Positions 186 through 26,449 of a stretch of 26,449 nucleotides of DNA are shown here, piece after piece (positions within the stretch are counted from its first letter, which is position 1; each line of letters starts with the position of its first letter). Source of the DNA: a virus. The notes beneath the pieces are model-generated. The model saw only the letters and a list, made by a program, of their open reading frames with translations. It searched no databases and was not told where the DNA came from. The position numbers and the translations under genes were made by a program. The stretch lies in UHGV virus genome UHGV-1509762, one strand, 5' to 3'.

Positions 186-1166
186 TTATAACGTCACTCC
201 GCCTTTTAGAGGATTCAGTGCGACGGCATTTTGCAGGTAGTCAGGCGCAAGGTGCGCATAGGCCATCGTCTGCTGAATGCTCGCATGTCCCAGAATCTGT
301 TGCAGTGCGATTATATTGCCCCCATTCATCATGAAATGGCTTGCGAATGTATGCCGCAGGATGTGGGTTGCCTGATTGGGTGGTATATCTGGCTTCACTC
401 TGCGTAAAATCCCGCAAAACTTCTCATAATCAACTTTGAATAATTTAGCGCTGGCCTCCTCTTTAACTTTTTTCTCCAGTTCCTCAGAAATCGGCACGGT
501 TCGCTTTTTACCGTTTTTGGTTTTCAGGAAGGTAACCCTGCAATTTGTAATCTGTGCTGGTTTTAGCGTGGCAACTTCCGTCCATCTTCCTCCAGTGCTC
601 AGACATAAAAGTGCGACAAGTAAGTCATCACCATCCAAAACATTTAACAGTTTTTCGATTTCTGCTTTTTCCAGGAACGTCATTTCAGGGTTGGCCTCCG
701 CCAGTGGCGGCAGTCCGTGAATTGGGTGTTGCCCGGAAAATTCATCCAATTGAATTAATTTTGTGAACATGCCGGATAATCGGTACATGTCACGGTTTAT
801 CGTTGCGGCACTGATACCATCACGTAGTCGCATGGAACGATAATCCATCAAAGCTCTTTTGCTCATCCGGCTCACTGGTATATCACCTATGCCGCTGATG
901 GTTTTGAGCAGATGATTAAACTCTTTTGTTCCATGCTCGTGGTTTTGCCCGTGATATTTCCACCAGATGTCCAGCAACTCACTCAAAGTTCTGCGATCTG
1001 CTCGCTGACCTGCCCATTCTTTCTGGCTGGCGTAGGCGATTGTGTATCGCTCAAATGCTACAGCCTCAGCTTTTCTTTCAAATTTCCTGCGGATGCGTTT
1101 TCCGTCGCGACCGCGAGGTCTAATGTCCACTTCATAGCGTCCATCATCGAGCTTCTTAATTGACAT
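186..1166 (-). CDS. int: Tyrosine site-specific integrase (P2 Int-like)
   Basis: 336-aa track ORF with tyrosine-recombinase C-terminal signature (HILRHTFASH ... LGHASIQQTMAYAHL: HxxR box and nucleophile Tyr). Start placed at the internal Met (MSIKKLDDGRYEVDIRP, as I recall the P2 Int N-terminus) because an AGAGGG ribosome-binding site sits 8 nt upstream of the ATG at 1166. Confidence 0.93.
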   Translation of the reverse strand: MSIKKLDDGRYEVDIRPRGRDGKRIRRKFERKAEAVAFERYTIAYASQKEWAGQRADRRTLSELLDIWWKYHGQNHEHGTKEFNHLLKTISGIGDIPVSRMSKRALMDYRSMRLRDGISAATINRDMYRLSGMFTKLIQLDEFSGQHPIHGLPPLAEANPEMTFLEKAEIEKLLNVLDGDDLLVALLCLSTGGRWTEVATLKPAQITNCRVTFLKTKNGKKRTVPISEELEKKVKEEASAKLFKVDYEKFCGILRRVKPDIPPNQATHILRHTFASHFMMNGGNIIALQQILGHASIQQTMAYAHLAPDYLQNAVALNPLKGGVTL

Positions 1167-1235
1167 AAGAAAGCCCTCTGACGCTGTATTCACCATCTTG
1201 GTAACAAATAGTGAAAATGTAATGTTTATAGAGTG

Positions 1236-3438: not shown

Positions 3439-3710
3439 GTATTCGTATTGAAATTGGCGAACGTTATGTCGTTACCAGTGACAGCTTTCAGTTTATTCTC
3501 CACGAGAAAAAGAGAGCGGAAAGCGGTAAAAACGCCGGTCAGGAATGGCTGGCGGTGGTTGGTTATTACCCGAAATTAAGCCAGCTCGTTTCCGGCCTGA
3601 TGCATCACGATATTCTGACCGGAAGCGCAAAATCTTTTGCTGATTTAAACGCGCAGGTTGAGCAACTCAGCAAGCGTTGTTCAGAGGCTTTTGGCTCACA
3701 TGGACGTTAA
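3435..3710 (+). CDS. Hypothetical early protein (P2 orf83 position)
   Basis: 91-aa ORF, ATG at 3435 overlapping the previous stop, GGAG RBS upstream. Confidence 0.55.
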   Translation: MSIRIEIGERYVVTSDSFQFILHEKKRAESGKNAGQEWLAVVGYYPKLSQLVSGLMHHDILTGSAKSFADLNAQVEQLSKRCSEAFGSHGR

Positions 3711-5973
3711 AGCCTCCGGGCGTTTTGTCCCTCCGTCAGCATTTGCCGCAGGCACCGGTAAGACGTTTACCGGTGCTTATGCATGGAACGCGCCACGCGA
3801 GGCCGTCGGGCGCGAAAGACCCCTTACACGTGACGAGATGCGTCAGGTGCAAGGTGTTTTATCCACGATTAACCGCCTGCCTTACTTTTTGCGTTCGCTG
3901 TTTACTTCACGCTATGACTACATCCGGCGCAATAAAAGCCCGGTGCACGGGTTTTATTTCCTCACATCCACTTTTCAGCGTCGTTTATGGCCGCGCATTG
4001 AGCGCGTGAATCAGCGCCATGAAATGAACACCGACGCGTCGTTGCTGTTTCTGGCAGAGCGTGACCACTATGCGCGCCTGCCTGGAATGAATGACAAGGA
4101 GCTGAAAAAGTTTGCCGCCCGTATCTCATCGCAGCTTTTCATGATGTATGAGGAACTCTGCGATGCATGGGTTGATGCGCATGGTGAAAAAGAATCGCTG
4201 TTTACGGATGAGGCGCAGGCTCACCTGTATGGTCATGTTGCTGGCGCTGCACGTGCTTTCAATATTTCCCCGCTCTACTGGAAAAAATACAGTAAAGGAC
4301 AGATGACCACGAGGCAGGCATATTCTGCCATTGCCCGTCTGTTTAACGATGAGTGGTGGATTAGTCAGCTTAAAGGCCAGCGTATGCGCTGGCATGAGGC
4401 GTTACTGATTGCTGTCGGGGAGGTCAATAAAGACCGTTCTCCTTATGCCAGTAAACATGCCATTCGTGATGTGCGTGCGCGCCGCCAGGCAAATCTGGAA
4501 TTTCTTAAATCGTGTGACCTTGAAAACAGGGAAACCGGCGAGCGCATCGACCTTATCAGTAAGGTGATGGGCAGTATTTCTAATCCAGAAATTCGCCGGA
4601 TGGAGCTGATGAACACCATTGCCGGTATTGAGCGTTACGCCGCCGCAGAGGGTGATTTGGGGATGTTTATCACGCTGACCGCGCCGTCAAAGTATCACCC
4701 GACACGTCAGGTCGGAAAAGGCGAAAGTAAAACCGTTCAGCTTAATCACGGCTGGAACGATGAGGCATTTAATCCAAAGGATGCGCAGCGTTATCTCTGC
4801 CGTATCTGGAGCCTGATGCGCACGGCATTCAAGGATAATGATTTACAGGTCTACGGTTTGCGTGTCGTCGAGCCACACCACGACGGAACGCCGCACTGGC
4901 ATATGATGCTTTTTTGTCATCCACGCCAGCGTAACCAGATTATCGAAATCATGCGTCGCTATGCGCTCAAAGAGGATGGCGACGAAAGAGGAGCCGCGCG
5001 AAACCGTTTTCAGGAAAAACACCTTAACCGGGGCGGTGCTGCGGGGTATATCGCGAAATACATCTCAAAAAATATCGACGGCTATGCACTGGATGGGCAG
5101 CTCGATAACGATACCGGCAGACCGCTGAAAGATACTGCCGCGGCTGTTACCGCATGGGCGTCAACGTGGCGCATTCCGCAATTTAAAACGGTTGGCCTGC
5201 CGACAATGGGGGCTTACCGTGAACTACGCAAATTGCCTCGCGGCGTCAGCATTGCTGATGAGTTTGACGAGCGCGTCGAGGCTGCACGCGCCGCCGCAGA
5301 CAGTGGTGATTTTGCGCTGTATATCAGCGCGCAGGGTGGGGCAAATGTCCCGCGCGATTGCCAGACTGTCAGGGTTGCCCGTAGCCCGTCGGATGACGTT
5401 AACGAGTACGAGGAAGAAGTCGAGAGAGTGGTCGGCATTTACGCGCCGCATCTCGGCGCGCGTCATATTCATATCACCAGAACGACGGACTGGCGCATTG
5501 TTCCGAAAGTGCCGGTCGTTGAGCCTTTGACTTTAAAAAGCGGCATCGCCGCGCCTCGGAGTCCTGTCAATAACTGTGGAAAACTCACCGGTGGTGATAC
5601 TTCGTTACCGGCTCCCACACCTTCTGAGCACGCCGCAGCAGTGCTTAATCTGGTTGATGACAGTGTTATCGAATGGAGTGACCCGGAGGTCGTGAGGGCG
5701 CTCAGAGGTGCATTAAAACACGGTCGGAGAACGCCAAATCGTCAGCAAAGAAACGGAAGCTCGTTAAAACCACATGAAATTGCACCATCGGCCAGACTGG
5801 CCCGGTCGGAACGAATGCAAATTACCCGTATCCGCGTTGACCTTGCTCAGAACGGTATCAGGCCGCAGCGATGGGAGCTTGAGGCGCTGGCGCGTGGCGC
5901 GACCGTAAATTATGATGGGAAAACGTTTTCATATCCGATTTCTGATGGTTGGGCGGGATTTGAAACAAACTAA
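3700..5973 (+). CDS. A: Rolling-circle replication initiator endonuclease (P2 gpA-like, HUH superfamily)
   Basis: About 760 aa; HUH motif (PHWHMMLF, DNA about 4897-4920) and two-tyrosine active-site motif (GYIAKYISK, DNA about 5044-5070). Start set at the ATG at 3700 (MDVKASGRF, like the P2 A N-terminus as I recall); the track's start at 3658 is a TTG. Confidence 0.92.
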   Translation: MDVKASGRFVPPSAFAAGTGKTFTGAYAWNAPREAVGRERPLTRDEMRQVQGVLSTINRLPYFLRSLFTSRYDYIRRNKSPVHGFYFLTSTFQRRLWPRIERVNQRHEMNTDASLLFLAERDHYARLPGMNDKELKKFAARISSQLFMMYEELCDAWVDAHGEKESLFTDEAQAHLYGHVAGAARAFNISPLYWKKYSKGQMTTRQAYSAIARLFNDEWWISQLKGQRMRWHEALLIAVGEVNKDRSPYASKHAIRDVRARRQANLEFLKSCDLENRETGERIDLISKVMGSISNPEIRRMELMNTIAGIERYAAAEGDLGMFITLTAPSKYHPTRQVGKGESKTVQLNHGWNDEAFNPKDAQRYLCRIWSLMRTAFKDNDLQVYGLRVVEPHHDGTPHWHMMLFCHPRQRNQIIEIMRRYALKEDGDERGAARNRFQEKHLNRGGAAGYIAKYISKNIDGYALDGQLDNDTGRPLKDTAAAVTAWASTWRIPQFKTVGLPTMGAYRELRKLPRGVSIADEFDERVEAARAAADSGDFALYISAQGGANVPRDCQTVRVARSPSDDVNEYEEEVERVVGIYAPHLGARHIHITRTTDWRIVPKVPVVEPLTLKSGIAAPRSPVNNCGKLTGGDTSLPAPTPSEHAAAVLNLVDDSVIEWSDPEVVRALRGALKHGRRTPNRQQRNGSSLKPHEIAPSARLARSERMQITRIRVDLAQNGIRPQRWELEALARGATVNYDGKTFSYPISDGWAGFETN

Positions 5974-5987
5974 CAATAATGATTGAC

Positions 5988-6018
5988 ATGCTTGATTTTG
6001 TATTCACAAATCAAGCAT
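5988..6018. repeat. Perfect 11-bp inverted repeat (ATGCTTGATTT / AAATCAAGCAT, 9-nt spacer) preceded by TTGACA; candidate operator or regulatory hairpin upstream of the methyltransferase
   Basis: Seen directly at 5988-5998 and 6008-6018, with TTGACA at 5983-5988. Lies in the gap between gene A and the methyltransferase start. Confidence 0.6.
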
Positions 6019-6084
6019 CAAGTAAACATCGATGATGAGAAAGAACAATGCTACAATCCCCACAGCATTAGAAGGAGGTTTATC

Positions 6085-7134
6085 TTGATTAAGGTTGTTG
6101 ATTTATTCTGTGGCGCGGGTGGCTTGACTCACGGTCTTCAGAAGTCGGGGCTTAATGTAGTTGCAGGTTATGATATAGATGCAGCCTGTCGATTTGCCTA
6201 TGAGACAAATAATAAATCACTCTTTGTCCAGAAAAGTGTTACAGACATTGAGGACGGCGAATTAGTTAAATATTTCGAAGGAGCGAAGGTTCGAGTTTTG
6301 GCTGGTTGTGCCCCATGCCAACCTTTTTCAAGCTATACCAATAGTGCTAAATTAGGGGTAGTACGTTCAAAAGATAAAAGATGGTCTTTGCTTTATAGCT
6401 TTGCTAAGCAAATTAAATTTGCAAAGCCAGATATTATTACAATGGAAAACGTTCCCCGAGTGGTGAATCATAAGGTTTTTAAGGACTTCATTAAGTCTCT
6501 TAAAAATGATGGCTATTTTGTTTGGTATGGGGTGGTGTTTTGTCCAGACTATGGAATGGCACAAAGTCGTTCAAGATTAGTGTTATTGGCATCAAAATAT
6601 GGAGAAATAGAAATAATTCCACCAACTCATGAGAAGAATGATTATAAAACGGTGCGAGATATAATCGGTAATCTTCCTGAAATTAGTGCCGGTGCTGTTC
6701 ACGCTGGAGATAAACTACATCGCTCTGCATCATTATCTGATATTAATATAAAAAGAATAATGGCATCAAAACCTGGTGGAACATGGCGTGATTGGCCAGA
6801 AGAGCTAAGAGCAAAATGTCATACAAAAGAAAGTGGTTCTACATATACTGCTGTATATGGGAGAATGTGTTGGGATAAACTTGGACCGACAATTACAACT
6901 CAATGTATTGGATATGGGAATGGACGCTTTGGGCACCCTGTCCAAAATAGAGCATTAAGTTTAAGAGAGGCTGCGCTATTACAGTCATTCCCAGAAAAGT
7001 ATGAGTTTTGGCCTGATGATGTAAAAATTGAAATGAGAACAGTTGCGCGTTTAATAGGTAATGCTGTTCCTGTTAGGCTTGGTGAGGTCGTAGGTGAAAC
7101 TATTTTAAAACATTTGTCAGAAATGAATATTTAA
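6085..7134 (+). CDS. DNA (cytosine-5)-methyltransferase
   Basis: C5-MTase motifs in canonical order: motif I LFCGAGG (FxGxGG), motif IV GCAPCQPFS (catalytic PCQ), motif VI ENV (ITMENVPRV), motif VIII QSRSR, motif X GNAVPV. Start set at the TTG at 6085 because a GAAGGAGG RBS lies 6 nt upstream and motif I follows within about 10 residues; the N-terminal extension of the track ORF (from 5983, also TTG) is low-complexity. Confidence 0.9.
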   Translation: MIKVVDLFCGAGGLTHGLQKSGLNVVAGYDIDAACRFAYETNNKSLFVQKSVTDIEDGELVKYFEGAKVRVLAGCAPCQPFSSYTNSAKLGVVRSKDKRWSLLYSFAKQIKFAKPDIITMENVPRVVNHKVFKDFIKSLKNDGYFVWYGVVFCPDYGMAQSRSRLVLLASKYGEIEIIPPTHEKNDYKTVRDIIGNLPEISAGAVHAGDKLHRSASLSDINIKRIMASKPGGTWRDWPEELRAKCHTKESGSTYTAVYGRMCWDKLGPTITTQCIGYGNGRFGHPVQNRALSLREAALLQSFPEKYEFWPDDVKIEMRTVARLIGNAVPVRLGEVVGETILKHLSEMNI

Positions 7135-7146
7135 AACTTATGTCAT

Positions 7147-7170
7147 CCCCCCTGTCAAAAAACAGGGGGG
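7147..7170. terminator. Hairpin between convergent genes (CCCCCCTGT / ACAGGGGGG stem, A-rich loop); likely bidirectional terminator
   Basis: Seen directly: 9-bp GC-rich inverted repeat in the 41-bp gap between the methyltransferase stop (7134) and the stop of the minus-strand ATPase gene (7176). Confidence 0.6.
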
Positions 7171-7175
7171 TATAA

Positions 7176-9134
7176 TTAGATTCCCTCAACTATTTTCATA
7201 ATTCTAGCTGCATCATTCTTTTTGTCTTGATATTCAGCATAGGCTTGTTTTGATTGCACGATTAGGTCATTATATGTCAATATTTTTCCATTGATAGAAA
7301 GTAATTGCATATTTATAAAGTGTTGGTTCTCTTGTAAATATCCAGAGCCAACCAGGAATATTACTTCTATATGCGGTATATTTCCACCTGGGCAATTTTT
7401 AGGGTTATTGGAGAACCATTGTGTCGTTGCCTGTACATATTTATTACCTTGTGCGACTAGGTTCATTATATCTGGGTGCACTTTAGGTCGTTTCATCTCA
7501 ATAATTACATGCTTGCCAGAAACGGTTTTGAAAGCGATATCAATACGAGCACCGCTAGCAGCATCAGGGTTTATCTGTTTTAGTTCCTTGGTCAATGTTT
7601 GCTCCATAACAGATGTGCCTGTGACTCTTTCCCATGAAGGATCCAATAACCATAAATGATCATATAAATACATTTGTACAGCTCTTTCAAGCTGATTTTC
7701 ATCAGTTATTTTTTGGAATTTTTCAATTACTTTAAGGCGTTGCGAAGTAATTTCATAAAACATGCTTGCTTCAATGTCATTGACAGATGCAAATACATCT
7801 TTAAAATTTTCTGATTGAAGGTTGCTTATTTTATCTAATGCATCAAGGTTGTCTTGAATTCTAAGTCTTTCAAAGGCTAATACCGTATTTTTTAATACGG
7901 TTTTTCTTGCTGCTTTTTGTTCTTCCTCATTACCAGAAAAACGGAATGTGTTTACTCGTCCAATTAACTTTTCGGCACTTTCTCTCTCATGTTTTTTGAG
8001 AGAATTCAGCCATTCACTTACTATTGGAGTATTGCTTTTAACTTCATTTACTCCTTTTTCGCGTCTCCATTTATCCCAATCTTTATCGATTAGTTGTAGC
8101 GTTCTTTCCAGAAAACCTTTAAGTACAGGGTATCTTGGATCATTCTGTTGTAGTTTTTGACGAGAAGATGTTGCCATATCAGGCTTTTCGTTATCATCTA
8201 GAAAATCGGCGACTATTTCACCGACCAGATAATTGGTGAATACTTTAGCACTTCCAAATTCTAATAATATGTCCTCCTCAAAAACACGTCCGTGAGAGAT
8301 TACAGTAATGCTGTTGTTAGATATTTCAGGGTCTTTCTTTAACTGTGATGGCTTAACTACACTGCCAATGTACCCACTAACTTTTACATCTTTTCCTTCA
8401 AAGGTAATAGTATTTGGTAATATGTTTTTTTGTGTGATGTTTGTGCAGGATTTTATCCTTTCAGGGTCGGATTCGCCAAATTCCCAAATGAACTCGAGAT
8501 CTGAAAGGAAATCTCTATCTGCCGGTGTAATATCGGTCCCATTAATTTTAACTGTAAAGTTATGGTTGGGGCCAATAATGCTAAATCGACGAGCTATTCG
8601 CTTTCTGAGGTAAGTTTGAGTCCTATCAATGGCTTTTTTTAGTTCAAATAATTTAATTGTAGTGCCGTAAGCAAGATTTTCGGGTATTTCAAGGGAGTCA
8701 GCAATATAGTTTTTTGATTCTTTGATACTTTGCTGTAAATCTTTGACATCTACCTCAAAGGCCTGAGGCTGTTCCCCCTTTTTGTACGAATAAACTTGGA
8801 TTTTATTGGCAAGTGAAAACATGGCAAGCTTACCAATACCTTTTCTGCCCATAACTTGACGTTTTAGATGATCGCTTTTGGCTCTTCCATGTTCCCTGCG
8901 AGCATAACCGACTTTTAGGAACTTATTAATAATGTCATCTTTAGACATGCCATGACCATCATCTTTAATGATGACCTCTCCTTTCTCAACATCAAGTGTA
9001 ATTTCTACATTTTGAGCATCTGCATCCCATGCATTTGATATAATCTCAGTTAGTACCGCGGGAGTATTGGAATAGAGACTCATCCCTAGGTGATTTAGCA
9101 CATTCAAATCAATTTTAATTTCGAAATCTGACAT
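7176..9134 (-). CDS. GHKL-family (MORC/MutL/Hsp90-like) ATPase with a C-terminal PD-(D/E)xK-like nuclease motif; putative ATP-dependent restriction or defence nuclease
   Basis: N-terminus carries the Bergerat-fold motifs: N box EIISNAWDADA (E30, N34, D37), G1 box IKDDGHGM (DxGxG), G2 box GRKGIGK. The C-terminal segment ARIDIAFKTVSGKHVIIEMKRPK has a D ... ExK arrangement (D532, E546, K548; DNA 7491-7541) consistent with a PD-(D/E)xK nuclease core. AAGGAA RBS precedes the ATG at 9134. The gene is AT-rich relative to the phage backbone. Confidence 0.85.
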   Translation of the reverse strand: MSDFEIKIDLNVLNHLGMSLYSNTPAVLTEIISNAWDADAQNVEITLDVEKGEVIIKDDGHGMSKDDIINKFLKVGYARREHGRAKSDHLKRQVMGRKGIGKLAMFSLANKIQVYSYKKGEQPQAFEVDVKDLQQSIKESKNYIADSLEIPENLAYGTTIKLFELKKAIDRTQTYLRKRIARRFSIIGPNHNFTVKINGTDITPADRDFLSDLEFIWEFGESDPERIKSCTNITQKNILPNTITFEGKDVKVSGYIGSVVKPSQLKKDPEISNNSITVISHGRVFEEDILLEFGSAKVFTNYLVGEIVADFLDDNEKPDMATSSRQKLQQNDPRYPVLKGFLERTLQLIDKDWDKWRREKGVNEVKSNTPIVSEWLNSLKKHERESAEKLIGRVNTFRFSGNEEEQKAARKTVLKNTVLAFERLRIQDNLDALDKISNLQSENFKDVFASVNDIEASMFYEITSQRLKVIEKFQKITDENQLERAVQMYLYDHLWLLDPSWERVTGTSVMEQTLTKELKQINPDAASGARIDIAFKTVSGKHVIIEMKRPKVHPDIMNLVAQGNKYVQATTQWFSNNPKNCPGGNIPHIEVIFLVGSGYLQENQHFINMQLLSINGKILTYNDLIVQSKQAYAEYQDKKNDAARIMKIVEGI

Positions 9135-21235: not shown

Positions 21236-23995
21236 ATGAGCACGAAATTTAAAACCGTTATCACTACTGCCGGAGCCGCGAAGCTGGCAGCCGCCACTGT
21301 TCCCGGCGGGAAAAAAGTAAACCTGTCTGCAATGGCTGTGGGTGACGGTAATGGCCAATTGCCGGTGCCGGATGCCGGTCAGACGAAACTGGTGCATGAA
21401 GTCTGGCGTCATGCCCTGAATAAAGTCAGTGTGGATAACAAGAATAAAAACTATATCGTGGCTGAACTGGTTGTTCCGCCAGAAGTGGGCGGCTTCTGGA
21501 TGCGTGAGCTTGGTCTGTATGACGATGCCGGAACACTGATTGCGGTATCCAACATGGCAGAAAGCTATAAGCCAGAACTGGCTGAAGGCTCCGGACGTGC
21601 GCAGACCTGCCGCATGGTTATTATTCTCAGCAACGTGGCGTCCGTTGAGCTGAGTATTGATGCCAGCACAGTGATGGCGACGCAGGATTACGTCGATGAC
21701 AAAATCGCAGAGCATGAGCAGTCCCGCCGCCATCCTGACGCCACGCTGACAGAAAAAGGTTTTACTCAGTTAAGCAGTGCAACAAACAGCACCAGTGAAA
21801 AGCAGGCTGCAACGCCAAAGGCAGTAAAAGCAGCCTATGACAATGCTGAGAAACGTCTGCAGAAAGACCAGAACGGTGGCGATATTCCAGATAAGGACGC
21901 TTTTCTGGACAATGTTGGCGTTACCAGCCTGACGTTTATGAAAAACAATGGCGAAATGCCGCTTGATGCTGATCTGAATACATTTGGTCCCGTTAAGGCT
22001 TATCTGGGAATCTGGTCTAAAGCTACCTCAACTAACGCAACACTGGAGAAAAATTTCCCGGAAGATAATGCTGTCGGTGTGCTTGAGGTTTTTGCTGCCG
22101 GCAATTTTGCAGGTACGCAACGCTTCACCACGAGAGACGGCAATGTATACATACGCAGACTCGCCAATAAGTGGAATGGCTCTGATGGTCCGTGGGGCAT
22201 ATGGCGTCACACTCAATCAGCTACCCGCCCTTTGAGTACGACTATAGACCTGAATACGCTTGGAGCCGCCGAACATCTTGGTTTATGGCGTAACAGTAGC
22301 TCGGCTATAGCTTCATATGAACGCAATTATCCAGAGGAAGGCGGCTTTGCTCAGGGGATGCTTGAGATCCTCGAAGGCGGAAATTATGGAAGAACGCAAC
22401 GTTATACCACTCGCCGTGGAAATATGTATGTCCGCTGCCTTGCGGCAAGCTGGGATGCATCAAATCCGCAGTGGGAACCGTGGTTAAGAGTCGGTCATCA
22501 GTCAGAGAGTCGTTATTACGAAGGTGATTTGAATGATGTAACCTCACCAGGTATTTACAGCGTTACAGGTAAAGCGACCAACGGTCCAGTACTGGACGGA
22601 AACGGCGTGACTGTACTCGGCATTCTGGAAGTGTTGAGGCGGTTTGATGGTGTTAATGTATGGCAGCGTTATACAACTGCCGGAACAGGTACAACCCTTA
22701 AAGGCCGCACCTTTGAGCGCGTCTTTACCGGCAGCTCATGGAGCGAATGGCGGGAAGTCTACACCTCGTATTCACTTCCCCTGAATCTGGGTATCGGCGG
22801 TGCTGTGGCAAAGCTCACCAGACTGGACTGGCAGACCTACGATTTTGTGCCGGGCAGTCTGATAACCGTTAGGCTGGATAATATGACCAATATTCCCGAC
22901 GGTATGGACTGGGGCGTCATTGATGGCAACCTGATAAACATCGCAGTTGGTCCGAGTGATGATTCCGGTACGGGGCGCTCAATGCATGTATGGCGCAGCA
23001 CTGTAAGTAAAGCGAACTACCGATTTTTTATGGTGCGTATTTCAGGAAATCCGGGAAGCCGCACGATCACAGCAAGACGAGTACCAATCATTGACGAAGC
23101 CCAGACATGGGGCGCGAAACAGACATTCAGTGCTGGCCTTTCTGGTGAACTGTCCGGCAATGCGGCGACAGCAACAAAGCTGAAAACAGCCCGTAAAATT
23201 AATAACGTTTCGTTTGATGGAACATCAGATATTAACCTGACGCCGAAAAATATTGGTGCATTTGCTTCAGGAAAAACAGGAGACACCGTTGCGAATGATA
23301 AAGCCGTTGGGTGGAACTGGAGTAGCGGAGCCTATAACGCAACTACTGGTGGGGTATCAACGTTAATTCTTCATTTTAATATCGGTGAAGGAAGTTGTCC
23401 CGCCGCCCAGTTCCGCGTTAATTATAAGAACGGCGGTATTTTTTATCGTTCTGCTCGTGACGGTTACGGATTCGAGGCTGACTGGTCTGAGTTTTATACC
23501 ACAACGCGAAAACCTACAGCGGGAGATGTCGGTGCACTGCCGTTATCTGGTGGTCAATTGAATGGTGCTCTGGGTATAGGAACATCCAGTGCTCTTGGCG
23601 GTAATTCGATTGTTTTGGGTGATAATGACACGGGCTTTAAACAAAATGGTGATGGTAATCTGGATGTTTATGCTAATAGCGTCCATGTTATGCGCTTTGT
23701 CTCGGGAAGTATTCAAAGTAATAAAACCATAAATATTACGGGGCGTGTTAATCCCTCGGATTACGGTAACTTTGATTCCCGCTATGTCCGGGATATCCGG
23801 CTTGGTGGTGCTGCCACATACAAACCTGCGAACAATGGCATGACATGGACACATCAGGCACCGTCCGGGTGTGTATATTCCGGCATTATTGTTCAGGATA
23901 CCGGCTCAAACTCTGCCGATAACATTGGTGGTGTATATTACAGACCGGTTCAGAAATACATTAACGGGACATGGTATAACGTGGCGCAGGTATAA
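21236..23995 (+). CDS. H: Tail fibre protein (P2 gpH-like N-terminus with an extended, repeat-containing distal part)
   Basis: 919 aa. The N-terminal 200 or so residues (TVITTAGAAKLAAAT ... ATNSTSEKQAATPKAVKAAYD) resemble P2 H; the rest is longer than P2 H (669 aa) and contains three tandem degenerate repeats of about 90 aa. Confidence 0.9.
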   Translation: MSTKFKTVITTAGAAKLAAATVPGGKKVNLSAMAVGDGNGQLPVPDAGQTKLVHEVWRHALNKVSVDNKNKNYIVAELVVPPEVGGFWMRELGLYDDAGTLIAVSNMAESYKPELAEGSGRAQTCRMVIILSNVASVELSIDASTVMATQDYVDDKIAEHEQSRRHPDATLTEKGFTQLSSATNSTSEKQAATPKAVKAAYDNAEKRLQKDQNGGDIPDKDAFLDNVGVTSLTFMKNNGEMPLDADLNTFGPVKAYLGIWSKATSTNATLEKNFPEDNAVGVLEVFAAGNFAGTQRFTTRDGNVYIRRLANKWNGSDGPWGIWRHTQSATRPLSTTIDLNTLGAAEHLGLWRNSSSAIASYERNYPEEGGFAQGMLEILEGGNYGRTQRYTTRRGNMYVRCLAASWDASNPQWEPWLRVGHQSESRYYEGDLNDVTSPGIYSVTGKATNGPVLDGNGVTVLGILEVLRRFDGVNVWQRYTTAGTGTTLKGRTFERVFTGSSWSEWREVYTSYSLPLNLGIGGAVAKLTRLDWQTYDFVPGSLITVRLDNMTNIPDGMDWGVIDGNLINIAVGPSDDSGTGRSMHVWRSTVSKANYRFFMVRISGNPGSRTITARRVPIIDEAQTWGAKQTFSAGLSGELSGNAATATKLKTARKINNVSFDGTSDINLTPKNIGAFASGKTGDTVANDKAVGWNWSSGAYNATTGGVSTLILHFNIGEGSCPAAQFRVNYKNGGIFYRSARDGYGFEADWSEFYTTTRKPTAGDVGALPLSGGQLNGALGIGTSSALGGNSIVLGDNDTGFKQNGDGNLDVYANSVHVMRFVSGSIQSNKTINITGRVNPSDYGNFDSRYVRDIRLGGAATYKPANNGMTWTHQAPSGCVYSGIIVQDTGSNSADNIGGVYYRPVQKYINGTWYNVAQV

Positions 23996-23998
23996 TTT

Positions 23999-24526
23999 AT
24001 GCAGCATTTAAAAAATATTACGGCGGGTAATCCAAAAACGGTTGAACAATATCAATTGACAAAAGACTTTGATGTTGTCTGGTTTTTTTCAGAAGATGGT
24101 AAGAACTGGTACGAAGAACAAAAGTATTTTGCTGATGACACGCTAAAAATAGCGTACGACAAAGATAATATCATCCGCTATGTGGAAAAGGATGTGACAG
24201 CTATCAGACCGGATGGATTAAGTGTTGTTGAAGTGGCGGATATTACTGCTAACCGACGGGCGGACATTTCAGGGAACTGGATGTTTAAGGACGGCAAAGT
24301 GATTAAACGCATTTATACGGCAGAGGAATTGCTGCAGCAGGCAGAAAACCGGAAAGCCAGACTTCTTGCAGATGCTGAATCCGTGATTTTGCCGCTGGAG
24401 CGCGCGGTCAGACTGAACATGGCAACAGATGAGGAGCGTAGCCGACTGGATGCATGGGAGCGTTACAGCGTTCTGGTCAGTCGTGTGGATCCTGCAAATC
24501 CTGAATGGCCGGAAATGCCGCAATAA
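23999..24526 (+). CDS. G: Tail fibre assembly chaperone (P2 gpG-like)
   Basis: 175 aa immediately downstream of H; same length and position as P2 G. Confidence 0.85.
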
Positions 24527-24747
24527 GTTGTATGATCTCTGGAGTGAGCAAACATATCTATGGCACAGAGTAAAGCCTAATCTGACAGGCCGCTCTGTGT
24601 CTGGAGTAGATTTTAGTAAAGCATTATTTTATTAGTGCAAATTCTAATCAATACATTTTATGTATATGATATCCTGCAGACTTTAATGACTTGGTTTAGG
24701 CTAACCAGATAACACTGAAGGAATATTTTTGATAATTAAGGTGCGGT

Positions 24748-25341
24748 ATGTTTACTAAGCGACGATTAAAAAATATTAACTGGGAGGCAAGTTCAGTGAT
24801 TCTTGCTATGGTTCTCTTTGTTGGAAATATATTTTATACAAATCATCGTGATGATATAACTATGGAGGCTGAGAGGGACAGTATCAGAACAATGTTTGCA
24901 TATGAAATCGCTAATAACCATCGCGCTCTCACTTTTCTTGATAAAACGAGATATATTGGCTTTGACGAAAATTCGGAGCATTTTGTTGGCGAGCCTTTTG
25001 CCATTAATGTCAAATCATTAGGGGGGCCTCGCTTACAGATTGCATTAAACCAGACTGATAAAGTGTTTAAATCCTACTTCAGCGAATTAAGTAAGCTTGA
25101 TAAAGAGGATGTTACTCTTCTTATGGACTATTACCATGAGCAAAGCATCCTGCTGGAGCGTGTAAAATCTACGTTACAGAAGATGAAAAGTGGTAATGAT
25201 ATTAAAGTTGATATTGATGGTTACTTATTAGAAGAACACTTCATGAATGAGCTTAATCTTTCTAATATTTTGCTTAAACGCTATAGCCATTTGTTGTCAC
25301 AACACGCCAAAGAACATAAAACAAAAGATTTACATAATTGA
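24748..25341 (+). CDS. Hypothetical membrane-anchored protein of unknown function (cargo gene at the G-downstream hotspot)
   Basis: 197-aa ORF in a visibly AT-rich island; TAAGGTG RBS just upstream of the ATG; N-terminal basic stretch then one hydrophobic helix (SSVILAMVLFVGNIFY), remainder charged. No family recognised. Confidence 0.6.
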   Translation: MFTKRRLKNINWEASSVILAMVLFVGNIFYTNHRDDITMEAERDSIRTMFAYEIANNHRALTFLDKTRYIGFDENSEHFVGEPFAINVKSLGGPRLQIALNQTDKVFKSYFSELSKLDKEDVTLLMDYYHEQSILLERVKSTLQKMKSGNDIKVDIDGYLLEEHFMNELNLSNILLKRYSHLLSQHAKEHKTKDLHN

Positions 25342-25546
25342 TAATCTGCTAATGGTTATTCATGGGGTAACTATGTTTTATATGTAATCCAACTCAGATG
25401 AATTATTGATTCTGGATAATAACCGCAGAGCGGTATATACCCTGACAGGCAAATGTCCGCTTCTTGTTCAAAGCAGACCGTCAGATTTGATAACTTTTGG
25501 GCTATGTAAATTGTCAGTCGGAAAATGAGTGAGTTCAAATCAGGAC

Positions 25547-25574
25547 AGGCGGGCGAATTGCCCGCCTTTTCTTT
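25547..25574 (+). terminator. Rho-independent terminator (AGGCGGGC / GCCCGCCT stem, T-rich tail)
   Basis: Seen directly: 8-bp GC stem with 5-nt loop (25547-25567) followed by TTTTCTTT; downstream of the 197-aa ORF and just before the IS2 end. Confidence 0.6.
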
Positions 25575-25593
25575 ATCTGTTGTTTCATCCACT

Positions 25594-26449
25594 GGATTTG
25601 CCCCTATATTTCCAGACATCTGTTATCACTTAACCCATTACAAGCCCGCTGCCGCAGATATTCCCGTGGCGAGCGATAACCCAGCGCACTATGCGGATGC
25701 CATTCGTTATAATGCTCGAACGCCTCTGCAAGGTTCTTTGCTGCCGTTAACCCGTCTGGTTTGGGCATGATACTGATGTAGTCACGCTTTATCGTTTTCA
25801 CGAAGCTCTCTGCTATTCCGTTACTCTCCGGACTCCGCACCGCCGTGTTCTTCGGTTCAAGTCCCAACATCCGGGCGAACTGGCGTGTTTCATTAGCCCG
25901 GTAGCATGAACCATTATCCGTCAGCCACTCCAGTGGAGACGACGGAAGATCGTTGCCGAAGCGGCGTTCCACCGCTCCCAGCATGACGTCCTGTACTGTT
26001 TCACTGTTGAAGCCGCCGGTAGTGACCGCCCAGTGCAGTGCCTCACGATCACAGCAGTCCAGCGCGAACGTGACACGCAGTCTCTCTCCGTTATCACAGC
26101 AGAACTCGAACCCGTCAGAGCACCATCGCTGATTGCTTTCTTTCACGGCCACTCTGCCTGTATGTGCCCGTTTCGATGGCGGTACAGCAGGTTTTCGCTC
26201 AAGCAACAGCGCATTCTGGCGCATGATCCGGTAAACACGTTTGGCATTGATCGCAGGCATACCATCAAGTTCTGTTTGTCTGCGAAGCAGCGCCCATACC
26301 CGACGATAACCATACGTGGGCAGCTCTCCGATAACATGGTGTATACGGAGAAGCACATCCGTATCATCAGTGTGACGACTGCGGCGGCCATCCATCCAGT
26401 CATCGGTTCGTCTGAGAATGACGTGCAACTGCGCACGCGACACCCGGAG
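25594..26449 (-). mobile_element. IS2 insertion sequence (IS3 family), partial, inverted orientation, truncated by the window end
   Basis: The terminal sequence TGGATTTGCCCCTATATTTCCAGACATCTGTTATCACTTAA at 25594-25634 is the reverse complement of the IS2 right inverted repeat as I recall it; followed by the IS2 orfB (InsD) coding sequence on the minus strand. Confidence 0.9.
25604..26449 (-). CDS. insD: IS2 transposase OrfB (InsD), 5' end outside the window
   Basis: 279-aa track ORF is recognisable as E. coli IS2 InsD over its whole length ([29 protein letters not shown] ... [33 protein letters not shown]); the true N-terminus and orfA lie beyond 26449. Confidence 0.92.

Follow-up and report, generated by a model that had tools for sequence, protein, structure and literature searches.

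Membrane-anchored superinfection-exclusion proteins with an external domain include the lactococcal Sie2009, Sp and Imm of T4, gp15 of HK97 and Ltp of Streptococcus thermophilus, and cassettes bounded by short palindromes comprise the integron attC cassettes and the Acinetobacter pdif modules. The genes of P2-like phages that come closest to the one described here are the cargos of the Z/fun region, one of the two classic P2 cargo hotspots, which is located between the tail-fibre assembly gene G and the tail-sheath gene FI. For P2-like phages, this hotspot is on record as their second defence locus. It was described as an accessory and defence hotspot (Egorov 2024 preprint; Moura de Sousa 2026, PMC13586616), and three experimentally selected defence systems map to it (Vassallo 2022, PMC9519451). 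In P2 it harbors fun(Z), the cloned gene of which blocks T5. Here, the Z/fun slot of the virus genome UHGV-1509762 was analyzed in a stretch of 26,449 nucleotides (nt), called the window in the following. The window contains a P2-like prophage with an integrase gene (186..1196), the replication gene A (3658..5973) and capsid, lysis and tail genes through H (21236..23995), followed by G and by an AT-rich cassette with one gene for a 197-amino-acid (aa) protein. That this gene is a functional accessory membrane-protein cassette is very probable (about 0.9), and a probability of roughly 0.4 is given to the more specific proposal that its product is a stand-alone envelope-level exclusion factor, blocking the entry of incoming phage DNA.

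The position of the cassette is the P2 Z/fun position, as had been proposed in an earlier sequence-only reading of the window. In P2, fun(Z) lies at the same place between G and FI, and in relatives with 99.9-100% identity across the island (E. coli CFSAN061771 and phage P22H1) FI starts 76-78 bp beyond window position 25593. The same reading had called the slot a known accessory hotspot, in agreement with the publications cited above (PMC9519451; Egorov 2024 preprint; PMC13586616). Six further different cargos with seven further genes were found between the same flanks, namely in P2, Wphi, pro147, P22H4, 569R9 and EC31/EC46. The cassette is therefore dispensable, because other cargos replace the window gene in related viable phages. 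All nine slot occupants examined, the window gene and eight others, are AT-rich with a GC content of 0.31-0.39, and three of the cargos, fun, pro147 ORF9 and P22H4 gp22, lie in the opposite orientation. An empty slot was absent from the phage records when the two joined flanks were used as query. A link of the cargo to one type of tail fibre was ruled out, as it occurs together with a 919-aa H protein in SIDE7 and a 681-aa H protein in AC1, and the same G allele is found with other cargos.

Position, composition, flanking repeats and dispensability were all tested, and by all four of them the element is a P2 Z-region cassette. It shares with the described Z/fun-region cassettes (AJ512677, AJ512680, fun(Z)) the slot, the AT-richness, the flanking inverted repeats and the backbone terminator, and like them it is non-essential and exchangeable, these cassettes being found in either orientation. 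It differs from Fun(Z) in its unrelated sequence, and whereas Fun(Z) blocks T5, the window gene has no phenotype on record. The hotspot, its inverted repeats and its AT-richness are already known, and the protein family is catalogued and uncharacterised.

The gene and its signals comprise the following features.

24748 to 25341, plus strand: intact open reading frame (ORF) of the 197-aa orphan protein (PHROG 3829; RefSeq WP_047335206.1).
24738 to 24743, plus strand: ribosome-binding site AAGGTG, 4 nt before the ATG, with TTTTGATAATTAAGGAG conserved in the Pantoea and Enterobacter copies.
24787 to 24840, plus strand: codons of the predicted transmembrane anchor (residues ~14-31, ASSVILAMVLFVGNIFYT), based on hydropathy and conserved across the family.
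24642 to 24675, plus strand: candidate promoter of the gene itself in a conserved AT-rich block, with a -35-like TTCTAA (24642-24647), a spacing of 17 nt and a -10 TATGAT (24665-24670).

One well-formed gene with a ribosome-binding site had been postulated for 24748..25341, and this is borne out by the intact 197-codon frame and the AAGGTG motif. When the E. coli, Pantoea and Salmonella copies are compared, the ratio of non-synonymous to synonymous substitutions (dN/dS) amounts to 0.10-0.14, with synonymous sites near saturation, which is the pattern of a real coding sequence under purifying selection. Among 32 sequences sharing 53-94% identity with the window protein, 29 residues are invariant, and the exact window protein is present on 400 contigs. 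A chance ORF in AT-rich junk DNA without any functional gene would agree with the lack of a known domain and of any annotation beyond 'hypothetical protein', but it is effectively refuted by the dN/dS values, and the motifs conserved down to ~16% identity, the confident structure model, the conserved ribosome-binding site and the 400 contigs with the exact protein speak against it as well, so that this explanation is scarcely credible.

The records of SIDE7, AC1 and P22H1 annotate a 181-aa form, which begins at an internal ATG (window 24796; loci L141/L142, 1549-2094) and loses the basic N-terminal tail. Conservation in the family supports the 197-aa start over this one, because residues 1-16, including an NWE motif, and the ribosome-binding site are both conserved. 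The candidate promoter can alternatively be read with TGaTATCCT as an extended -10. The block ...CTAATyAATAyATTTTAyrTATATGATAT, to which it belongs, is conserved upstream of the Pantoea homologue, which lies in a non-P2 context.

The window protein belongs to PHROG 3829, a family of uncharacterised function, and aligns with the family profile from end to end (E 2.8e-137; residues 1-197 vs. profile positions 1-197). Its name at NCBI is 'lysogenic conversion protein'. Both AJ512677 and AJ512680 label every ORF of the Z-region as 'putative lysogenic conversion protein', and the NCBI name probably stems from these Z-region records and appears to be positional; an experiment supporting it was not found. 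The statement that the protein matches no family therefore holds for Pfam, NCBIfam and PADLOC, in none of which a family was found, and not for PHROG and the NCBI name; in addition, the family profile gave no sequence match in the PDB. For 21 relatives, no Pfam family and no consistent library match were obtained, only scattered single-member PADLOC matches at E > 0.004. Homology to Fun(Z) of P2 was ruled out (best BLASTP E 2.1 over 19 residues, with a different length of 528 aa and the opposite strand), and a profile comparison with hhalign gave no relationship to three other slot occupants.

The family is small, with 38 clusters at 90% identity among 5.8 billion proteins and 29 representatives at 50% identity among 1.84 billion proteins, and all named members come from Enterobacterales. 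Distant members, down to ~16% identity, keep the same plan of a basic N-terminal tail, one hydrophobic helix with NWEAxSVIxAMxLF and the motif IRTMxAYEIxxN, followed by a second conserved block, YF..L..LD..E...M.YY. R47, N57 and L117 are invariant over this range. No paper in the literature mentions WP_047335206, phrog_3829 or FIG00644420, and the DefensePredictor supplements do not list the window protein.

A single N-terminal transmembrane helix had been assigned to the protein, and indeed it contains one hydrophobic segment (residues ~14-31), which is borderline by hydropathy with a Kyte-Doolittle 19-residue maximum of 1.54, is conserved in the family and is modelled as a helix. The highly charged C-terminal region described along with it was overstated, since the charges are evenly spread (26 K+R and 28 D+E) at an isoelectric point of 6.5. 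In 39 sequences, the N-terminal tails are net basic (144 K+R vs. 40 D+E), and the 15 residues past the helix count 102 K+R vs. 129 D+E. Based on the positive-inside rule applied to these charges, a cytoplasmic N-terminus and a periplasmic C-terminal domain are predicted (N-in, type II, single-pass). In several distant members, a CxxxxC pair is present at the C-terminal end, in keeping with a periplasmic location.

The AlphaFold model, calculated from a diverse alignment, has a mean predicted local distance difference test score (pLDDT) of 84.9 and a predicted template modelling score (pTM) of 0.73. It contains a continuous helix of residues 12-66, whose membrane part is continued by the first helix of an up-down four-helix bundle. 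The other bundle helices are formed by residues 92-116, 119-148 and 151-178. Structure and topology prediction, which had been suggested as checks, thus give a predicted N-in single-pass protein with a periplasmic four-helix bundle.

In another explanation, the protein would act as an abortive-infection or membrane-damaging effector, which would sense the infection, depolarise or permeabilise the inner membrane and kill the cell. Single-pass and other small membrane proteins are common as defence effectors (PMC9122126), and the gene is found in a defence hotspot. However, there is just one membrane helix, and the protein is for the most part a soluble-looking periplasmic bundle. Furthermore, a partner sensor gene is missing from every context examined, the gene is stably carried in 201 complete genomes and in isolated, propagated phages, and lysogens gave no reported protection attributable to it. 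This mode of action is thus regarded as quite improbable.

The fold is also related to a further explanation, a lysogenic conversion which has nothing to do with phages. In this case, the periplasmic bundle would bind an envelope or sensory protein of the host, such as the periplasmic sensor domain of a chemoreceptor or a histidine kinase, and alter signalling, the envelope or niche fitness, comparable to the connector proteins SafA and MgrB, which act on PhoQ. The predicted structure resembles four-helix-bundle sensor domains, with the same continuity between the membrane helix and the first bundle helix, and the top match of the model among viral models is also a 4HB_MCP-type domain. In contrast to the sensor domains of chemoreceptors and kinases (Tar, Tsr, PcaY, MCP2201), the window protein lacks a second membrane helix and a cytoplasmic signalling module: it ends ~15 residues after the last bundle helix, and the two flanking helices and the signalling module of 4HB_MCP proteins are therefore not present. 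The 4HB_MCP families of Pfam matched neither the window protein nor the 21 relatives, including distant members, there is no sequence similarity to sensor domains, and the match of the fold is generic, designed bundles scoring higher.

The genomic surroundings of the homologues bear on the same explanation. Prophage cargo of this type exists, with a Lom-type gene in the same Salmonella prophage end that carries a homologue, and the plasmid homologue lies beside haemolysin-type (HlyC/ShlB) and Ail/Lom-type outer-membrane genes. The contexts are mostly phage tail regions and defence or restriction genes and not virulence loci. Two lysogen tests without reported protection attributable to the gene agree with a role directed at the host, which on balance seems rather unlikely.

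For the preferred proposal of an exclusion factor, the following course can be assumed. The gene would be expressed in the lysogen, probably from a promoter of its own within the conserved AT-rich leader, with possible additional read-through from the late V-G operon, and transcription would end at the backbone terminator before pF. The product would consist of a short basic cytoplasmic N-terminal tail, one transmembrane helix and an up-down four-helix bundle of ~165 residues in the periplasm. On the periplasmic face of the inner membrane, this bundle would bind the genome-delivery component of an incoming phage or a membrane protein of the host which is used by it. Binding would stop DNA entry for a narrow set of phages outside the eight that were used for challenge (see below). 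The evidence counted for this proposal consists of the hotspot position, the purifying selection, the occurrence as a stand-alone mobile gene, the predicted topology and the fold.

By analogy, the protein may work like the small membrane-anchored exclusion proteins named at the beginning. In their described architecture, Sie2009, Sp, Imm, gp15 and Ltp are likewise the products of small single genes of phages or prophages, with an N-terminal anchor and most of the protein outside the cytoplasm, as is predicted for the window protein. The resemblance is architectural only, and the window protein differs in that it has no detectable homology to anything of known function.

Several points weigh against the exclusion proposal. 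The topology is a prediction, and the promoter is a candidate only, which matches 8 of 12 consensus positions and falls below the scan threshold. PADLOC-DB 2.0.0 contains no match for the window protein and no consistent match for members of its family; this is weak evidence, as PADLOC also misses Fun(Z) and four other slot occupants, so that its negative result excludes little. None of these five other occupants had a Pfam match, either. No published experiment on the window protein was found. Closest to one are the lysogens of E. coli C with four new P2-like phages, of which two, SIDE7 and AC1, carry the window gene (Rousset et al., 2022). The gene of SIDE7 is 100% identical to the window gene at the nucleotide level, and the AC1 protein shares 94.9% identity. 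These lysogens were challenged with lambda, T4, P1, 186cIts, CLB_P2, LF82_P8, AL505_P2 and T7, a panel which does not include T5 (Rousset et al., 2022). Only the AC1 lysogen was protected, and only against lambda and LF82_P8, which was reproduced by the cloned TIR system of hotspot 1 (Rousset et al., 2022). In its native context, the gene thus gave no reported protection against the eight phages, the result for SIDE7 being only implied; the gene is not discussed in that paper.

At present, this is an ordinary-looking uncharacterised hotspot gene, for which the sole relevant published data are negative. If the proposal is true, it would represent a new periplasm-facing exclusion factor, or otherwise a new kind of host-modulating prophage cargo gene. 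As the gene is common, small and self-contained and occurs in several kinds of mobile elements, a phenotype would be easy to test and would apply widely.

The full island was detected in 201 of 5426 complete E. coli genomes (~3.7%), always in the chromosome, and 886 complete E. coli genomes match some part of it, about a quarter of them with the full island. This makes the cassette one of the commonest occupants of the Z/fun slot in E. coli. Only 13 of 50,697 phage records contain it, which represent 8 distinct E. coli P2-like phages. A search for the gene at the same position in other P2-like phages, as had been suggested, thus yielded 8 isolated phages, e.g., SIDE7, AC1 and P22H1. Outside P2-like phages, the homologue is always a lone gene, and its neighbors differ in every context examined:

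Dickeya zeae: island with a faint SIR2-like match (SIR2_2), a DUF87 protein, ArdC, CcdAB and IS110.
Salmonella: transfer region of an integrative and conjugative element (ICE), between tra genes; homologue of 24% identity, encoded on the strand opposite to that of the tra genes, with IS110 nearby; one flank holds genes matching DUF1525, TraU and TraG_N, the other flank a TraC match.
Pectobacterium: siphovirus-type prophage, between tail genes, on the opposite strand.
Pantoea: small island with an AlpA-type gene, near an Rhs toxin.
Enterobacter cloacae: IncFII plasmid, beside IS91 and VapC; close homologue.
Salmonella: end of a lambdoid prophage, where the homologue follows the tail-fibre genes and adjoins a methylase-DUF4928 pair.

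All copies are AT-rich relative to their surroundings. Homologues found mainly outside prophages and with a housekeeping role had been named as an observation that would contradict an accessory function; all homologues examined sit in mobile elements.

The occurrence of a distant homologue (24% identity) in the transfer region of the Salmonella ICE and of a close one on the IncFII plasmid suggests another target, in which the protein would exclude conjugative elements or other incoming DNA and not phages. Yet the ICE homologue is oriented against the tra genes and has IS110 nearby, most copies are found in prophages, and no similarity to the TraS, Eex or TraT families was detected, which makes this target highly improbable.

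The cargo, its borders and the adjacent backbone are defined by the following features.

23999 to 24526, plus strand: tail-fibre assembly gene G, the left anchor of the slot (Pfam Caudo_TAP, E 2.2e-34; identical relatives carry the annotation 'tail fiber assembly protein').
24562 to 24601, plus strand: conserved backbone hairpin just after G (GGCACAGAG ... CTCTGTGTC), -22.6 kcal/mol, z -3.2.
24579 to 24614, no strand assigned: left border site, a degenerate copy of a ~33-bp inverted repeat or palindrome with the consensus CTGACAGTCCGCTCTGTGCCAAGAGCGGACATT, identified as a repeat pair and by border comparison across seven slots.
24600 to 25455, no strand assigned: exchangeable AT-rich cargo of 856 bp; P2 homology ends at 24599 and restarts at 25456 (BLASTN).
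25452 to 25487, no strand assigned: right border site AATGTCCGCTTCTTGTTCAAAGCAGACCGTCAGATT, inverted relative to the left one, identified as a repeat pair and by border comparison.
25547 to 25577, plus strand: intrinsic terminator with a hairpin at 25547-25567 and a T-run, P2 backbone immediately upstream of the pF promoter.

A switch to AT-rich DNA directly after G had been noted and is evident from the drop in GC content from 0.51 to 0.36. It amounts to 0.363 over 24527..25593 and 0.350 in the ORF, compared to 0.510 for the preceding 24.5 kb, with 200-nt windows down to 0.29. The extent of 24527-25593, which had been given for the island, has to be corrected. In a BLASTN comparison with phage P2, whose cargo differs completely, window positions 24401-24599 and 25456-25584 are ~89% identical to P2. 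Because both flanks match the P2 backbone, the exchangeable DNA is 24600..25455 only, and the proposed island includes conserved backbone, which is not cargo, at its start (~70 nt, to 24599) and at its end (~135 nt, 25456-25584). Position 25593, its proposed end, is the insertion point of an IS2 copy and no natural border.

About 200 bp of non-coding DNA and a strong intrinsic terminator had also been described downstream of the gene. Between the stop codon and the hairpin there are 205 nt without a credible ORF. The terminator is present, with a stem of 9 pairs, 7 of them G-C, followed by TTTTCTTT (-20.1 kcal/mol, z -4.4; none of 200 shuffled sequences folds as well), but it does not belong to the island: it is conserved P2 backbone and keeps its position in P2, Wphi, pro147, P22H4 and 569R9 irrespective of the cargo. 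The hairpin after G is likewise present in P2, Wphi, P22H4 and pro147, and it may attenuate read-through from the late V-G operon. An Rfam search of 24300-25700 gave chance-level matches only.

This arrangement bears on a possible role in the lytic cycle, in which the gene would be transcribed by late read-through from V-W-J-I-H-G and its product would act at the envelope, e.g., by keeping progeny or superinfecting P2-like particles from injecting into infected cells or debris, or by tuning lysis. The gene is located on the strand of the late operon, which it follows directly, and precedes the only canonical terminator. In three phage contexts, homologues are found inside clusters of tail or tail-fibre genes or at their end. 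On the other hand, the three cargos of opposite orientation mentioned above share this slot, and homologues also reside in elements lacking a phage late operon, namely an ICE, a plasmid and islands. In addition, a stable hairpin separates G from the cassette, and the gene occurs with different H alleles (SIDE7 and AC1, see above). A lytic function is therefore considered very unlikely.

Inverted repeats at the Z-region are annotated in GenBank already, as AJ512677 and AJ512680 (P2-EC31 and P2-EC46 'proviral Z-region') contain a 'left inverted repeat' and a 'right inverted repeat'. These map to window positions ~24499-24611 and 25455-25545, with the core ~33-bp sites inside them. The left consensus CTGACAGTCCGCTCTGTGCCAAGAGCGGACATT and the right consensus AATGTCCGCTTCTCGCTCAAAGCAGACTGTCAG are inverted copies with 27 of 33 positions identical, and both are imperfect palindromes. 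Among P2-like phages, the cargo-side (inner) half of the border sites varies with the cargo, and the backbone-side (outer) half is constant. This half-site pattern would fit recombination within the site, and equally repetitive extragenic palindromic (REP)-like hairpins favouring homologous exchange.

The same palindromes flank the homologous gene in the Pantoea island (locus L007, 5783-5811 and 6706-6740) and on the Enterobacter IncFII plasmid (locus L008, ~5781-5809 and ~6603-6629). Beyond the ORF, these two copies share with the window a leader of ~20 nt, which forms the ribosome-binding-site block, and a trailer of ~140 nt, and the Pantoea copy additionally shares the TATATGATAT block further upstream. 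That they are captured P2 fragments was ruled out, as no remnants of G, H or FI are found beside them. Because leader, trailer and border palindromes are shared without such remnants, the palindrome-bounded unit looks like the entity that moves. Isolated copies of the palindrome were also found in intergenic DNA of ~60 other Enterobacterales plasmids (loci L015-L018, near position 4000). When genomes were scanned for a palindrome pattern reduced to the stem, the pattern proved too unspecific and matched REP-like repeats in Alphaproteobacteria.

By analogy to attC cassettes and pdif modules, the window cassette is a single-gene cargo bracketed by imperfect palindromes of ~26-33 bp with a variable cargo-side half, and its gene occurs with the same sites in unrelated replicons. 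It differs from both systems in that it has no site consensus of the integrase or Xer type and no associated recombinase, and excision or inversion is only conjectural. A palindrome-bounded cassette would help to explain the fast swapping of cargo at P2 hotspots. The far-reaching combination, in which the gene would represent a new class of single-gene envelope immunity, its tethered periplasmic bundle intercepting the genome-delivery apparatus of, e.g., T5-like phages (blocked from the same slot by the unrelated Fun(Z)), or a decoy of a periplasmic sensor of the host, and the cassette would be moved among P2-like phages, plasmids and islands by a recombinase acting site-specifically at the border palindromes (~26-33 bp), is clearly unlikely.

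The trailer of ~110 nt between the stop codon and the right border site (window 25342-25455; L007, 6595-6705; L008, 6487-6600) is conserved about as well as the coding region. This conservation was seen in the Pantoea and Enterobacter copies, which have a small hairpin, TAGCCT-nnn-AGGCTA. An Rfam match or an ORF was not found in the trailer.

An unrelated slot occupant, gp22 of P22H4 (minus strand; locus L013, 3820-4575), has a strong N-terminal hydrophobic helix with a Kyte-Doolittle value of 2.41 at residue 19. Membrane-anchored cargo therefore seems to recur at the Z/fun slot.

Hotspot 1 of the window prophage, between the replication gene A and the portal gene Q (5983-9134), contains a type II restriction-modification pair. 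Its first member is a C5 cytosine methyltransferase of 383 aa (Pfam DNA_methylase), and the second, encoded in the opposite direction, is a restriction enzyme of 651 aa that contains a GHKL ATPase domain (PADLOC REase_II, E 3e-91). The Salmonella lambdoid prophage with a homologue (loci L009/L010, 7040-9188) also carries a restriction-modification module based on a cytosine methylase, which is located directly downstream of the homologue. The pairing with the module of the window prophage is possibly a coincidence.

Finally, an insertion sequence was identified next to the cassette.

25594 to 26449, minus strand: 3' part of IS2, which runs off the window, with a 279-aa ORF containing rve, rve_3 and HTH_21 domains.

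Its DNA is ~98% identical to copies annotated as 'IS3-like element IS2 family transposase'. The junction at 25593/25596 was located by comparison with an intact relative and P2, and it is present in none of the complete E. coli RefSeq genomes. In P2, the annotated activator-binding site of pF extends from -97 to -69 relative to the start of FI. As the junction lies 76-78 bp upstream of the position at which FI starts in intact relatives, IS2 splits the sequence corresponding to this site. Judged from this position, with the operon and the rest of the insertion sequence lying outside the window, the insertion may disable the activated transcription of the FI-FII-E-T-U-D tail operon and may cripple the prophage.

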